A stretch of 64,000 nt of DNA, from assembly GCF_055900595.2 (NCBI RefSeq), contig NZ_CM148325.1; one strand, 5' to 3'. Shown in pieces: positions 10,260 to 15,908 of the stretch. The notes below the pieces were generated by a model that saw nothing but the letters and a program-made list of their open reading frames with translations, ran no database searches and was not told where the DNA came from. The stretch's first letter is position 1, and each line of letters opens with the position of its first letter. Both the position numbers and the translations under genes were made by a program.

Positions 10260-12236
10260 ATGTCTGACGACATGTCTATGGGTTTGCCTTCGTCAGCGGG
10301 CGAACACGGTGTACTACGCTCCATGCAGGAGGTTGCAATGAGCTCCCAGGAAGCCAGCAAGATGCTGCGTACTTACAATATTGCCTGGTGGGGCAATAAC
10401 TACTATGACGTTAACGAGCTGGGCCACATCAGCGTGTGCCCGGACCCGGACGTCCCGGAAGCTCGCGTCGATCTCGCGCAGTTAGTGAAAACTCGCGAAG
10501 CACAGGGTCAGCGTCTGCCTGCACTGTTCTGTTTCCCACAGATCCTGCAGCACCGTTTGCGTTCCATTAACGCCGCGTTCAAACGAGCGCGGGAATCCTA
10601 CGGCTATAACGGCGATTACTTCCTCGTTTATCCGATCAAAGTTAACCAGCACCGCCGCGTGATTGAGTCCCTGATTCATTCGGGCGAACCGCTGGGCCTG
10701 GAAGCCGGTTCCAAAGCCGAGTTGATGGCGGTGCTGGCACATGCTGGCATGACCCGTAGCGTCATCGTCTGCAACGGTTATAAGGACCGCGAATATATCC
10801 GCCTGGCATTAATTGGCGAGAAGATGGGCCACAAGGTCTATCTGGTCATTGAGAAGATGTCAGAAATTGCCATTGTGCTGGATGAAGCAGAACGTCTGAA
10901 TGTCGTTCCTCGTCTGGGCGTGCGTGCACGTCTGGCTTCGCAGGGCTCGGGTAAATGGCAGTCCTCCGGCGGGGAAAAATCGAAGTTTGGCCTGGCGGCG
11001 ACTCAAGTACTGCAACTGGTTGAAACGCTGCGTGAAGCCGGGCGTCTCGACAGCCTGCAACTGCTGCACTTCCACCTCGGTTCGCAGATGGCGAATATTC
11101 GCGATATCGCGACAGGCGTTCGTGAATCCGCGCGTTTCTATGTGGAACTGCACAAGCTGGGCGTCAATATTCAGTGCTTCGACGTCGGCGGCGGTCTGGG
11201 CGTGGACTATGAAGGCACCCGTTCTCAGTCTGACTGCTCCGTAAACTACGGCCTCAATGAATACGCCAACAACATCATCTGGGCGATTGGTGATGCGTGT
11301 GAAGAAAATGGTCTGCCACATCCGACGGTAATCACCGAATCGGGTCGTGCGGTGACTGCGCATCACACCGTGCTGGTGTCGAATATCATCGGCGTGGAAC
11401 GTAACGAATACACGGTGCCGACCGCGCCTGCAGAAGATGCACCGCGCGCCCTGCAAAGCATGTGGGAAACCTGGCAGGAAATGCACGAACCGGGAACTCG
11501 CCGTTCTCTGCGTGAATGGTTACACGACAGCCAGATGGATCTGCACGACATTCATATCGGCTACTCTTCCGGCACCTTTAGCCTGCAAGAACGCGCATGG
11601 GCTGAGCAGCTTTATTTGAGCATGTGCCATGAAGTGCAAAAGCAGCTGGATCCGCAAAACCGTGCTCATCGTCCGATTATCGACGAGCTGCAGGAACGTA
11701 TGGCGGACAAAATGTACGTCAACTTCTCGCTGTTCCAGTCGATGCCGGATGCGTGGGGGATCGACCAGTTGTTCCCGGTTCTGCCGCTGGAAGGGCTGGA
11801 TCAAGTGCCGGAACGCCGCGCTGTGCTGCTGGATATTACCTGTGACTCAGACGGTGCTATCGACCACTATATTGATGGTGACGGTATTGCCACGACAATG
11901 CCTATGCCGGAGTACGATCCGGAGAATCCGCCGATGCTCGGTTTCTTTATGGTCGGCGCATATCAGGAGATCCTCGGCAACATGCACAACCTGTTCGGTG
12001 ATACCGAAGCGGTTGACGTGTTCGTCTTCCCTGATGGTAGCGTAGAGGTAGAACTGTCTGACGAAGGCGATACCGTGGCGGACATGCTGCAATATGTGCA
12101 GCTCGATCCGAAAACGCTGTTAACTCAGTTCCGCGATCAGGTGAAGAAAACCGATCTTGATGCTGAACTGCAACAACAGTTCCTGGAAGAGTTCGAGGCA
12201 GGTTTGTACGGTTATACCTATCTTGAAGATGAATAA
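10260..12236 (+). CDS. speA: biosynthetic arginine decarboxylase (658 aa)
   Basis: Track ORF (TTG-extended) trimmed to ATG at 10260, [20 protein letters not shown]... Confidence 0.96.
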
Positions 12237-12257
12237 TTAAGATTATTCTGCTGGCGG

Positions 12258-12300
12258 GGCGATTTATTTACGTAAATCGGCCCGCTTTCTTTTTATATAT
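12258..12300 (+). terminator. probable speA terminator
   Basis: gcggggcgattta...taaatcggcccgc imperfect hairpin followed by tttctttttat. Confidence 0.5.
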
Positions 12301-12318
12301 TCTTAAAAATAATTTAGC

Positions 12319-12327
12319 TGCTTTTCT
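12319..12327. repeat. IS1 target-site duplication, left copy (tgcttttct)
   Basis: Identical 9-mer abuts both IS1 ends. Confidence 0.9.
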
Positions 12328-12382
12328 GGTGATGCTGCCAACTTACTGATTTAGTGTATGATGGTGTTTTTGAGGTGCTCCA

Positions 12383-12658
12383 GTGGCTTCTGTTTCTATC
12401 AGCTGTCCCTCCTGTTCAGCTACTGACGGGGTGGTGCGTAACGGCAAAAGCACCGCCGGACATCAGCGCTATCTCTGCTCTCACTGCCGTAAAACATGGC
12501 AACTGCAGTTCACTTACACCGCTTCTCAACCCGGTACGCACCAGAAAATCATTGATATGGCCATGAATGGCGTTGGATGCCGGGCAACCGCCCGCATTAT
12601 GGGCGTTGGCCTCAACACGATTTTCCGCCATTTAAAAAACTCAGGCCGCAGTCGGTAA
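12383..12658 (+). CDS. insA: IS1 InsA (91 aa)
   Basis: [40 protein letters not shown]... zinc-finger N-terminus of IS1 InsA. Confidence 0.92.
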
Positions 12659-13080
12659 CCTCGCGCATACAGCCGGGCAGTGACGTCATCGTCTGCGCGG
12701 AAATGGACGAACAGTGGGGATACGTCGGGGCTAAATCGCGCCAGCGCTGGCTGTTTTACGCGTATGACAGGCTCCGGAAGACGGTTGTTGCGCACGTATT
12801 CGGTGAACGCACTATGGCGACGCTGGGGCGTCTTATGAGCCTGCTGTCACCCTTTGACGTGGTGATATGGATGACGGATGGCTGGCCGCTGTATGAATCC
12901 CGCCTGAAGGGAAAGCTGCACGTAATCAGCAAGCGATATACGCAGCGAATTGAGCGGCATAACCTGAATCTGAGGCAGCACCTGGCACGGCTGGGACGGA
13001 AGTCGCTGTCGTTCTCAAAATCGGTGGAGCTGCATGACAAAGTCATCGGGCATTATCTGAACATAAAACACTATCAATAA
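12577..13080 (+). CDS. insB: IS1 InsB reading frame (joined to InsA by -1 frameshift to give the InsAB' transposase)
   Basis: Track ORF with the IS1 InsB body (...[33 protein letters not shown]...); the 5' boundary of the track ORF is not a real start. Confidence 0.85.
12631..12639 (+). other. IS1 A6C-type -1 frameshift window (ttaaaaaac)
   Basis: ttaaaaaactc lies at the insA 3' end inside the insA/insB overlap. Confidence 0.6.
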
Positions 13081-13095
13081 GTTGGAGTCATTACC

Positions 13096-13104
13096 TGCTT
13101 TTCT
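13096..13104. repeat. IS1 target-site duplication, right copy (tgcttttct)
   Basis: Identical to 12319-12327. Confidence 0.9.
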
Positions 13105-13158
13105 TATTAAATAATCTCCCTACAATCGCTGCATTAATTAAATGCAGAGGGAACGGTT

Positions 13159-13890
13159 ATGAAAAAATGGAAAGTACGTAGCGCGTTGGTGGCATTAATC
13201 GTGCTGCTGGCTGGTTGTTCCAGTAATGCGCAGTATAATAGCAGTGCATCAGGCAATGTCGGCACCGCCTGGGGTGGGGATGTGCACTCAACGGTTCAGG
13301 GCGTATCTGCTGAACGAGCCTGGCGCGATCCGGCAGAGATGATCGTTATTAGTTATTCGACTAATGTTCCTTCCGGCTACGACCGCGTTTATAGCATTCG
13401 TATTAACGAACTGGAATATGCTATTCGCGATGGTAATTTTAATTCTCTACCTATTACGCGGGTTTATGATTCATCCAATAATGAACCACGCTATATTGTC
13501 CATGCCAGAGTCGGAATGAATTATCAATTATATGTCCGTAATTACAGTCGTAACACCAACTACGAGATCGTTGCTACGGTTGATGGCCTGGATGTGCTGA
13601 ACGGCAAGCAAGGTTCGCTGAATAACAACGGTTATATTGTGAATGCCGGAGATTCGTTAGCGATTAAAGGATTCCGCAAAGATAAACATACCGAAGCGGC
13701 TTTTCAGTTCGCCAACGTTGCTGATTCCTACGCAGCCAATTCGGCGCAAGGCGATGTGCGTAATACCGGTGTAATCGGCTTTGCCGCCTTTGAATTACAA
13801 GGCCCGGCGAAAAACGCGCTGCCGCCGTGCTCTGGACAAGCCTTTCCGGCAGATAACAATGGCTATGCGCCGCCACCGTGTCGGAAATAG
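13159..13890 (+). CDS. predicted lipoprotein, 243 aa, function unknown; not part of the K-12 speA-speB arrangement
   Basis: ATG at 13159 with upstream agagggaa RBS; N-terminus MKKWKVRSALVALIVLLAGCSSN has a signal peptide plus lipobox LAGC; Asn/Tyr/Ser-rich body; two Cys near the C-terminus. Confidence 0.7.
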   Translation: MKKWKVRSALVALIVLLAGCSSNAQYNSSASGNVGTAWGGDVHSTVQGVSAERAWRDPAEMIVISYSTNVPSGYDRVYSIRINELEYAIRDGNFNSLPITRVYDSSNNEPRYIVHARVGMNYQLYVRNYSRNTNYEIVATVDGLDVLNGKQGSLNNNGYIVNAGDSLAIKGFRKDKHTEAAFQFANVADSYAANSAQGDVRNTGVIGFAAFELQGPAKNALPPCSGQAFPADNNGYAPPPCRK

Positions 13891-13950
13891 CAACCTCGCT
13901 TGATGCCTCGCCCATTTAAGGCGATAATTAGCACAAACTTGTGTTTCACA

Positions 13951-13997
13951 AATCCAACCCTTCCTCGTCGGGCCTAACGACGCGGAAGGGTTTTTTT
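13951..13997 (+). terminator. strong hairpin plus T7 run about 30 bp upstream of speB
   Basis: cccttcctcgtcgggcctaacgacgcggaaggg followed by ttttttt. Confidence 0.55.
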
Positions 13998-14025
13998 ATA
14001 TCGACTTTGTAATAGGAGTCCATCC

Positions 14026-14946
14026 ATGAGCACCTTAGGTCATCAATACGATAACTCACTGGTTTCCAACGCCTTTGGTTTTTTACGCCTGCCGATGAAC
14101 TTCCAGCCATATGACAGCGATGCTGACTGGGTGATTACTGGCGTGCCGTTCGATATGGCCACTTCTGGTCGTGCGGGTGGTCGCCACGGTCCGGCAGCGA
14201 TCCGTCAGGTTTCGACGAATCTGGCCTGGGAACACAATCGCTTCCCGTGGAATTTCGACATGCGTGAGCGCCTGAACGTCGTGGACTGCGGCGATCTGGT
14301 ATATGCCTTCGGAGATGCCCGTGAGATGAGCGAGAAGCTGCAGGCGCACGCCGAGAAGCTGCTGGCTGCCGGTAAGCGTATGCTCTCCTTCGGTGGTGAC
14401 CACTTTGTTACGCTGCCGCTGCTGCGCGCTCATGCGAAGCATTTCGGCAAAATGGCGTTGGTACACTTTGATGCCCACACCGATACCTACGCTAACGGTT
14501 GTGAATTTGACCACGGCACCATGTTCTATACCGCGCCGAAAGAAGGTCTGATCGACCCGAATCATTCTGTGCAGATTGGTATTCGTACCGAGTTTGATAA
14601 AGACAACGGCTTTACCGTGCTGGACGCCTGCCAGGTGAACGATCGCAGCGTGGATGACATTATCGCCCAGGTGAAACAGATTGTGGGTGATATGCCGGTT
14701 TACCTGACCTTTGATATCGACTGCCTGGATCCTGCTTTTGCACCAGGCACCGGTACGCCGGTAATTGGCGGCCTGACCTCCGATCGCGCCATTAAACTGG
14801 TACGCGGCTTGAAAGATCTCAACATCGTTGGGATGGACGTAGTGGAGGTGGCTCCGGCATACGATCAGTCGGAAATCACCGCTCTGGCTGCGGCGACGCT
14901 GGCGCTGGAGATGCTGTATATCCAGGCGGCGAAAAAGGGCGAGTAA
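14026..14946 (+). CDS. speB: agmatinase (306 aa)
   Basis: [43 protein letters not shown]... full-length match to SpeB; aggagt RBS. Confidence 0.96.
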
Positions 14947-14979
14947 GCGCCAGATAAGAGGCGCGCGGGTGATGTGCCA

Positions 14980-15135
<156 letters not shown>

Positions 15136-15149
15136 GGCACTACCTGGCT

Positions 15150-15908
15150 TTACTTAACTCCATCCGCGCTCATACGATCGCGAATATGCTGGGCGCGTTC
15201 GGCGGATGCAGGATGGTCGTCAAACATTGAGCTTTGGCGGCCTTCTTCCAGTTTCGCCAGTTTTTCAAAGCTGGTGGCAAGACCTGCCGGGCTGATACCG
15301 CGTTGGCGCAGCAAATCGTAGGAGTAATCATCGGCCTCTGATTCCTGACGTTGGGTAAATTGCGAATTGACTAGCTTTTCGCCCAGGTCTCCCAGTTGTG
15401 ATTGTGACAAACTGCCGACAATTCCGCCTGCAGAGGCCGCCGCAACGCGAATTGCGTTTGTACCAAGTGCTACCTGCATTCCTTTCTTCACATGGCCTAA
15501 TGCCACGTGCCCCATTTCGTGACCGAGCACCGCTTCGACTTCGTTATCCGTCATCATATCCATCAGCCCGCTATAGACGCGGATACAGCCGTTAGCCATT
15601 GCAAAGGCGTTCACATCCTTCGCCATATACACTTTGTAATTCACCGGCTGACCGTTGATGTTATCGCCTAACGCGCGAGAAATTGTCGTCAGACGTCTAG
15701 CATATTCGCTATTGGCTGGCGCAATCGTCGCTTTGCTGTCCATCTCCTGGCATGCCTGATCGCTCAGTTTTTTCACCTGCGCATCACTCAAACTGTAAGC
15801 CTGAAAAGCTTCCGCTCCTGATGAGAGCAGTCCACTGGAGTCCATATTCTGGCAACCGGTCAGCACCGTAGCCACGCTCATTGCTACCAATAAGGCGCGA
15901 ATTTTCAT
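15150..15908 (-). CDS. loiP: M48 metalloprotease LoiP/YggG (252 aa)
   Basis: Track ORF trimmed 73 codons to MKIRALLVAMSVATVLTGC (lipoprotein signal); HEMGH zinc motif visible. Confidence 0.9.
   Translation of the reverse strand: MKIRALLVAMSVATVLTGCQNMDSSGLLSSGAEAFQAYSLSDAQVKKLSDQACQEMDSKATIAPANSEYARRLTTISRALGDNINGQPVNYKVYMAKDVNAFAMANGCIRVYSGLMDMMTDNEVEAVLGHEMGHVALGHVKKGMQVALGTNAIRVAAASAGGIVGSLSQSQLGDLGEKLVNSQFTQRQESEADDYSYDLLRQRGISPAGLATSFEKLAKLEEGRQSSMFDDHPASAERAQHIRDRMSADGVK

Follow-up and report, generated by a model that had tools for sequence, protein, structure and literature searches.

A conserved intrinsic terminator in the speB leader of Escherichia coli and its relatives probably acts as a leaky attenuator

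Genes and elements around speB

We analyzed a stretch of 64,000 nucleotides (contig NZ_CM148325.1 of RefSeq assembly GCF_055900595.2), called the window below, which around speB is E. coli DNA and is 100% identical to strain U1 over 1.9 kb. On the plus strand, speA ends at position 12236 (open reading frame list and RefSeq annotation of U1) and is followed by a terminator-like hairpin that was identified by folding (12253-12286, plus strand, then UUUCUUUUU, with a U-rich tail to ~12295; -21.7 kcal/mol, z -5.3). This post-speA hairpin is found in lipoprotein-type strains, and the K-12 sequence differs there. A weak Rfam match at this hairpin, to the Pseudomonas small RNA P31 on the minus strand at 26 bits vs. 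a threshold of 40, probably reflects chance.

A complete IS1 of 768 bp (12328-13095; annotated as IS1B in strain U1) follows, bounded by 9-bp target duplications in the form of the direct repeats tgcttttct at 12319-12327 and 13096-13104. It lies 63 bp upstream of the ATG of a predicted lipoprotein gene of 243 amino acids (13159-13890, plus strand; open reading frame list and annotation), whose signal peptide carries the lipobox LAGC. A Pfam search of this protein returned no family, the best match being DUF7537 at E 0.08. About two thirds of E. coli genomes, K-12 not among them, carry the lipoprotein gene between speA and speB, and homologs with 66-95% identity occupy the same site in scattered species of Citrobacter, Klebsiella, Kluyvera, and Enterobacter. 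This pattern suggests an accessory gene with repeated gain or loss at one spot.

Beyond the lipoprotein gene comes the intergenic interval under study (13891-14025, plus strand) and then speB itself (14026-14946, plus strand), which encodes an agmatinase of 306 amino acids according to the open reading frame list, the RefSeq annotation of the identical U1 locus, and Pfam PF00491 in relatives. The genes downstream are loiP, on the minus strand, and tkt. The convergent spacer between speB and loiP (14947-15150) contains REP-like palindromic repeats in E. coli, of the GCCGGATAAG and CTTATCCGAC types, and unrelated hairpins sit at this position in other genera.

A stable hairpin and a promoter before speB

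The sequence-only reading that preceded this work had pointed to a long terminator-like hairpin with seven T residues about 30 bp before speB, and our analysis agrees. The hairpin (13956-13992, plus strand) has 14 pairs and is G+C-rich. Folding resolves it into a lower stem, AACCCUUCC/GGAAGGGUU (13956-13964/13984-13992), and an upper stem, CGUCG/CGACG (13966-13970/13978-13982), which are separated by a single U.C mismatch (13965/13983) and capped by the 7-nt loop GGCCUAA (13971-13977). An A-rich stretch adjoins its 5′ side, and the U-run of seven T (13991-13997) follows directly on its 3′ side. The 41-nt hairpin fold reaches -24.4 kcal/mol, compared to a mean of -10.9 (sd 2.5) for shuffled sequences (z -5.5; 0 of 200 shuffles as stable), and the whole 135-nt interval is also unusually stable (z -4.4; again 0 of 200). 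A simple terminator scan of the window did not list this site, probably because of the internal mismatch. When searched as a degenerate pattern, the 33-nt core of the hairpin matched once in the window vs. 0.00 matches expected.

Between the T-run and the speB ATG at 14026 there are 28 nt, which hold the Shine-Dalgarno sequence AGGAG (14014-14018; GAGG is conserved in all species), and the prediction that a promoter could not fit into this gap therefore stands. The stretch from the U-run to the Shine-Dalgarno sequence contains a short CGAC(T/G) motif, an echo of the upper stem’s 3′ half, both in the window (13998-14013) and in most species, although the length of this spacer ranges from 24 to 66 nt. 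Two other possible roles for the structure were set aside. Pairing of a hairpin arm with the speB Shine-Dalgarno sequence amounts to 4 + 2 pairs by eye, which is negligible vs. -24 kcal/mol. Mimicry of an anticodon arm is suggested by the 5-bp upper stem and 7-nt loop, but positions 32/33 are G G, which is not tRNA-like.

On the other side of the hairpin, between it and the lipoprotein stop codon (13890), sits a sigma-70 promoter, TTGATG-17-GATAAT (13900-13928). The promoter scan, conservation, and the K-12 start site agree on the -10 hexamer GATAAT (13923-13928), and the scan and conservation on the -35 hexamer (13900-13905), which reads TTGATG here, TTGAAT in K-12, and TTGAAC in most species. 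Because the scan returned 5 sites in the window vs. 4.4 expected, the match alone is not above chance, and support for the promoter comes from the K-12 start site and conservation rather than from the scan score. In most species, the -10 hexamer lies within a short palindrome (GGCGATAATTCGCC); the version in the window is broken (GGCGATAATTAGC, 13920-13934), and the K-12 palindrome is in a different register (GCGGTGATAATCCGC). This palindrome could be an operator or a coincidence.

Transcript ends in K-12

From 13948 through the speB ATG and further, the window matches K-12 exactly, and published K-12 transcript maps could therefore be placed on this leader. In the SMRT-Cappable-seq data (Yan et al. 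2018, PMC6131387, Supplementary Data 2), an operon consisting of b2937 (speB) only starts at 3083886 on the reverse strand. The same data contain speA-speB operons with starts at 3085928, 3085945, and 3085946, as well as a yqgB-speA-speB operon whose start is at 3086409 (PMC6131387). In the Term-seq data (Adams et al. 2021, PMC7815308, supplementary files 1 and 3), a 3′ end is called at 3083827(-), 30 nt upstream of the speB open reading frame. It is classed as “orphan,” its printed context comprises the hairpin and T-run, and it is the sole 3′ end called in the speA-speB neighborhood downstream of speA (PMC7815308). It appears in the M63 glucose sheet only, i.e., in one of three growth conditions and not in LB (PMC7815308); promoter activity, and not regulated termination, could be the cause. 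Nowhere in the main text do Adams et al. 2021 mention speB (PMC7815308), and the Cappable-seq 2016 supplements contain no entry for the speB leader region.

Mapping onto the K-12 sequence places the start at 3083886, 89 nt upstream of the ATG, 8 nt after GATAAT, and ~20 nt before the stem, with the TTGAAT hexamer 17 bp upstream of GATAAT. The 3′ end at 3083827 falls on the sixth T of the run. With the start upstream of the hairpin and a 3′ end in the T-run, the hairpin lies inside the speB 5′ leader, and since both speB-only and speA-speB operons are recorded, transcripts begin upstream of the hairpin and also cross it. In K-12, a transcript from the speB promoter thus either ends at 60 nt or runs on through the gene. 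Szumanski and Boyle, working on the K-12 speA-speB region in 1990 and 1992, reportedly found that speB is transcribed either jointly with speA or from a promoter of its own, and in 1992 are said to have found that agmatine induces transcription from the speB promoter.

These maps also bear on the earlier proposal that speB transcription has to read through the structure or start upstream of it; the K-12 start site and the full-length speB and speA-speB transcripts record an upstream start followed by read-through. Efficient read-through had been named as one observation that would count against concern over speB expression. Full-length K-12 reads running from the promoter across speB do exist, and they speak to the occurrence of read-through rather than to its efficiency. 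By position, the equivalent transcription start in the window is predicted at 13936 (the A in cacA, plus strand) and the RNA 3′ end is expected at 13996, the sixth T, giving a predicted terminated leader RNA of 61 nt (13936-13996) compared to 60 nt in K-12.

The hairpin combines a stable G+C-rich stem-loop, a U-tract directly 3′ of it, and an in vivo 3′ end in K-12, where the sequence is identical. These are the features of an intrinsic (Rho-independent) terminator, and here that terminator would lie inside the speB leader. A terminator working in both directions was rejected, as the K-12 Term-seq tables contain no antisense-strand 3′ end nearby.

Distribution in E. coli and the position of IS1

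We surveyed 5426 complete E. coli genomes by blastn, using a 181-nt junction query and a 53-nt hairpin element. The junction query had a match in 5425 of the 5426 genomes, once in each. It matched at full length in 3558 genomes, the majority form, in which the lipoprotein gene precedes the promoter-hairpin unit. In the remaining genomes, including K-12 MG1655 and BL21, speA is directly upstream with a 137-bp spacer. The hairpin query was likewise found in 5425 of 5426 genomes as a single copy, and 5222 genomes were at least 99% identical to it. With one place per genome even at E up to 10, the idea of a REP-like repetitive extragenic element was dropped. IS1 was present at the speA-speB site in only 10 of the 5426 genomes. 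The hairpin is thus a general feature of E. coli and not peculiar to the IS1-bearing strain.

The sequence-only reading had also held that the hairpin, together with IS1 and the lipoprotein gene upstream, makes speB expression in this strain uncertain. Taken to its end, this would leave speB poorly expressed or silent, and the case for it is that IS1 interrupts the path from speA to speB 63 bp before the lipoprotein ATG and that the hairpin looks like a strong terminator. Yet IS1 lies beyond the lipoprotein gene, ~800 bp upstream of the speB promoter-hairpin interval, and the speB promoter stands between the lipoprotein stop codon and the hairpin. Moreover, the promoter, hairpin, and leader in the window are identical to those of IS1-free strains, speB transcripts in K-12 run through this very hairpin, and the lipoprotein-type arrangement is the majority form (3558 of 5425 genomes). 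We found no support for this strain-specific worry, which is probably wrong, and consider weak or silenced speB expression highly improbable. If anything, IS1 may disturb the lipoprotein gene’s own promoter rather than speB.

Conservation beyond E. coli

To follow the element further, we used a protein-guided scan of speB loci from 80 Enterobacteriaceae species, and the hairpin was present in every locus. The genera covered include Citrobacter, Klebsiella, Enterobacter, Kluyvera, Raoultella, Lelliottia, Cedecea, Pluralibacter, Atlantibacter, Trabulsiella, and Leclercia. Among 79 species, the 33-nt core occurred in just 13 sequence variants with ~6 variable positions. This variation consists of two loop positions, wobble changes from U-A to U-G and from C-G to U-G, one full compensatory change, and a flip of the stem base between U-A and A-U, the last seen in 17 of 51 aligned species. 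Across those 51 species, standard pairs fill 99.7% of pair cells, nine pairs are invariant, and the RNAalifold consensus is the same hairpin with no other structure. For comparison, pairwise identity at four-fold degenerate sites of speB in these species is only 58.6% on average, and the sequence 3′ of speB, which holds the gene’s own terminators, shows no relationship between genera.

The surroundings of the hairpin are also held in place. A T-run of about 6-9 T follows it in all 85 hairpin-bearing loci, and 80 of these 85 have a GATAAT placed 27-34 nt ahead of the stem, itself preceded at a spacing of 17 bp by a hexamer resembling TTGAAC. The ~20 nt upstream of the stem vary strongly, except for an A-rich, AAUCAA-like stretch adjoining it. 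By contrast with this constancy, the gene upstream changes: of 88 loci, 63 have speA adjacent and 9 have it at a greater distance, while 9 have the lipoprotein gene upstream and 7 have other genes there. The promoter-hairpin unit therefore stays with speB whatever gene lies upstream.

Outside the core group, the hairpin is present in Salmonella, where the upstream gene is an unrelated hydrolase, in Edwardsiella, with a 6-nt loop, and in Apirhabdus/Erwinia sp., with speA adjacent. It is absent from Morganella, which has a 59-nt spacer, from Providencia, where speA is not upstream, and from Sodalis, Acerihabitans, and Biostraticola, in which speA and speB are 13-16 nt apart. Two database labels stood out in the survey. 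A contig labelled Chryseobacterium sp. 18061 (CACSKA010000005.1, locus L077) carries a typical Enterobacteriaceae speA-hairpin-speB locus, and an agmatinase 88% identical to that of E. coli (protein P0007) is labelled Vagococcus sp.; both are probably contaminated or mislabelled assemblies.

One locus from an Enterobacter metagenome-assembled genome (L050, 2392-2500) lacks the promoter, and its hairpin begins 29 nt after the speA stop codon. This is a natural variant in which speB can be reached only by read-through from speA. Keeping the hairpin without the promoter counts against reading the element as a leader attenuator, and it favors a simpler account in which the hairpin is merely the 3′ terminator of the upstream gene, be it speA or the lipoprotein gene, with the promoter in front by chance and no role in attenuation. 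That account also fits the K-12 3′ end, the only one mapped downstream of speA, and the lack of a hairpin in relatives with speA and speB 13-16 nt apart. We nevertheless regard it as unlikely, given that speA in lipoprotein-type strains already has a terminator-like hairpin of its own (12253-12286), that in Salmonella the hairpin still adjoins speB behind an unrelated hydrolase gene, that promoter and hairpin keep a set spacing of 27-34 nt in 80 of 85 loci, and that ordinary terminators turn over quickly.

The pattern of substitutions speaks to the level at which the element is constrained. Pairing is kept and the changes are wobble-compatible on the plus strand, which suggests selection on the RNA. 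A DNA operator, at which a transcription factor would act as a roadblock downstream of the start site, could draw on the imperfect 37-bp palindrome at +21 to +57 with its invariant half-sites CGTCG/CGACG. This role appears scarcely credible, however, as a run of 6-9 T always follows the palindrome, the substitutions (U-A to U-G, C-G to U-G) fit pairing of plus-strand RNA, and an RNA 3′ end maps in the T-run in K-12. Further, ordinary terminators turn over fast while the stem, mismatch, and loop of this hairpin are near-invariant, which argues that its sequence, and not only its shape, is read by something.

A probable leaky attenuator and insulator

Taken together, we consider it probable that the hairpin is a leaky intrinsic terminator in the speB leader that serves as both attenuator and insulator, with speB made by read-through. 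RNA polymerase would arrive either from the speB promoter or from the upstream gene, which is the lipoprotein gene in the window and speA in K-12. It would then transcribe the hairpin and U-run, and a fraction would terminate at about 13996, yielding a leader RNA of roughly 60 nt and, for polymerases from further upstream, the end of the upstream gene’s message. The remaining transcripts would read through to give speB mRNA. The element would therefore work as a leaky attenuator and insulator, setting the amount of speB and uncoupling it from the preceding gene. IS1, being outside the promoter-hairpin-speB unit, would be expected to have little effect.

In this account, the structure and its conservation were observed here, and the start site, 3′ end, and read-through come from the K-12 maps. 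As expected of an attenuator, the terminator is placed after the transcription start and ahead of the start codon, both in those maps and, by promoter position, in 80 of 85 loci. Judging from the shared sequence, the same transcription events presumably take place in the window strain, where a certain fraction would terminate and read-through may or may not be regulated. A plain leaky terminator leaves unexplained why the loop, mismatch, and stem are near-invariant across genera.

The terminated leader itself might be the functional product. With its start defined and its 3′ end set by a terminator, the predicted RNA of roughly 60 nt would be stable and consist of a hairpin and U-tail, and 5′ untranslated region fragments of the kind described by Adams et al. 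2021 can serve as small-RNA sponges (PMC7815308). A small RNA or sponge nonetheless seems very unlikely: the single-stranded 5′ part, which would act as the seed, is the least conserved part, the searchable literature yielded no RIL-seq or other interaction evidence, and the RNA is absent from Rfam. An Rfam 15 scan of 12100-14300 at E up to 10 likewise returned nothing relevant to the speB leader; the sole overlapping match was mir-1305 on the other strand, at 17 bits vs. a threshold of 63.

Comparison with known systems

Like canonical E. coli intrinsic terminators, the element has a G+C-rich stem-loop, a U-run, an A-rich 5′ side, and an in vivo 3′ end within the U-run. Unlike them, it lies in a 5′ leader ~20 nt after a promoter instead of after a gene, and it is near-invariant across genera whereas the ordinary terminators at this locus are unrelated between species.

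A comparable layout is that of the S10 (rpsJ) leader, in which a promoter is likewise followed by a terminator hairpin that sits some tens of nucleotides ahead of the first gene. The S10 leader terminator is controlled by ribosomal protein L4 and NusA, without a leader peptide. By analogy of layout alone, control of speB might act on the terminator hairpin itself and not through an alternative fold. The two systems differ in that the speB leader before the hairpin is only ~20 nt and not conserved, and in that an effector is known for S10 only. Their 3′ ends, rpsJ (-34) and speB (-30), are neighbors in the same Term-seq table (PMC7815308).

As in the trp, thr, and pyrBI attenuators, the terminator lies between promoter and structural gene, so that read-through determines expression. 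Those attenuators differ from the speB leader, which has neither a conserved leader open reading frame nor an alternative antiterminator structure. In folds of the window and K-12 leaders, the terminator hairpin was the only substantial structure. We also considered a leader peptide ending at the UAA of the loop. In K-12, this UAA closes a 10-codon frame (GUG ACA AAU CCA ACC CUU CCU CGU CGG GCC UAA), but only about 18 of 85 loci offer an in-frame start codon downstream of the transcription start, and several carry an in-frame stop shortly upstream; this candidate was rejected.

With mdtU-mdtJI and speFL-speF, speB shares a place in the polyamine pathway and an RNA 3′ end within the 5′ untranslated region, reported in the same Term-seq study (PMC7815308). 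Those two systems, however, use Rho and a translated upstream open reading frame that senses spermidine or ornithine, whereas the speB element is an intrinsic terminator without an upstream open reading frame.

Finally, from 13948 onward the DNA is the same as the K-12 speA-speB intergenic region of Szumanski and Boyle (1990, 1992), the difference being that the window has the 243-aa lipoprotein gene and IS1 between speA and the promoter-hairpin unit.

Possible regulation of read-through

If something reads the hairpin, the fraction of read-through could vary with conditions. We therefore entertain, as a tentative possibility, a regulated attenuator in which the invariant hairpin is recognized by an RNA-binding protein, a small RNA, or a small cation (for instance agmatine or a polyamine) that changes this fraction. 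Such regulation would extend the leaky-attenuator explanation and does not exclude it. The order of promoter, terminator, and gene with fixed spacing is an attenuation layout, and the core varies at only ~6 positions in 79 species, compared to 59% identity at speB four-fold sites, and is kept in Edwardsiella, even as ordinary terminators at the speB locus are not conserved. The K-12 3′ end was seen only in minimal glucose medium, an observation inseparable from promoter activity. In addition, E. coli polyamine genes mdtJI and speFL are under premature termination control (PMC7815308), and the title of the 1992 paper by Szumanski and Boyle ties agmatine and cAMP to speB. That title and the premature termination in other polyamine genes make agmatine and polyamines the obvious candidate signals.

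Against regulation, only ~20 variable nucleotides precede the stem, we found no antiterminator fold, conserved leader open reading frame, or Rfam family, and blastn of the 5426 E. coli genomes found the hairpin at no further site, giving no hint of a regulon. A more specific version, to which we give slightly less credence still, is attenuation without an antiterminator, in which the U.C mismatch, the GGYYUAA loop, or the base of the hairpin would be the direct target of a protein, a small RNA, or a polycation such as agmatine, putrescine, or spermidine, and read-through into speB would be tuned in this way. If true, this would account for the reported agmatine effect on speB as well as for sequence conservation from Escherichia to Edwardsiella. 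The other accounts, i.e., an upstream-gene terminator, a leader small RNA, a DNA operator, or silencing, are all weighted below regulated read-through.

Significance for polyamine metabolism

The hairpin itself is not new, as its DNA, start site, and 3′ end are already public for K-12. In the searchable literature, we found no description of it as a conserved attenuator, leader, or terminator, nor of a fixed promoter-terminator unit across Enterobacteriaceae and beyond, nor of hairpin constraint far above that of a normal terminator, and the speB-rich papers in our search concerned coding mutations only. The speB hairpin is best regarded as a so far uncharacterized attenuator and insulator in the leader.

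What emerges is a compact promoter-terminator-gene unit of about 135 bp that is conserved across Enterobacteriaceae, with a hairpin far more constrained than termination alone requires. For the strain studied here, IS1 is unlikely to silence putrescine synthesis from agmatine, because speB has its own promoter and leader, as in thousands of E. coli genomes. We found no definition of the cis-element behind the reported effects of agmatine and cAMP on speB, and the hairpin offers a small, easily mutated target. As the gene for the agmatine-to-putrescine step, speB matters for polyamine balance and acid stress, and bacterial agmatine has been reported to mediate metformin effects on host metabolism and lifespan in Caenorhabditis elegans. 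Should the attenuator prove to be regulated, speB output would be coupled to agmatine or polyamine status.
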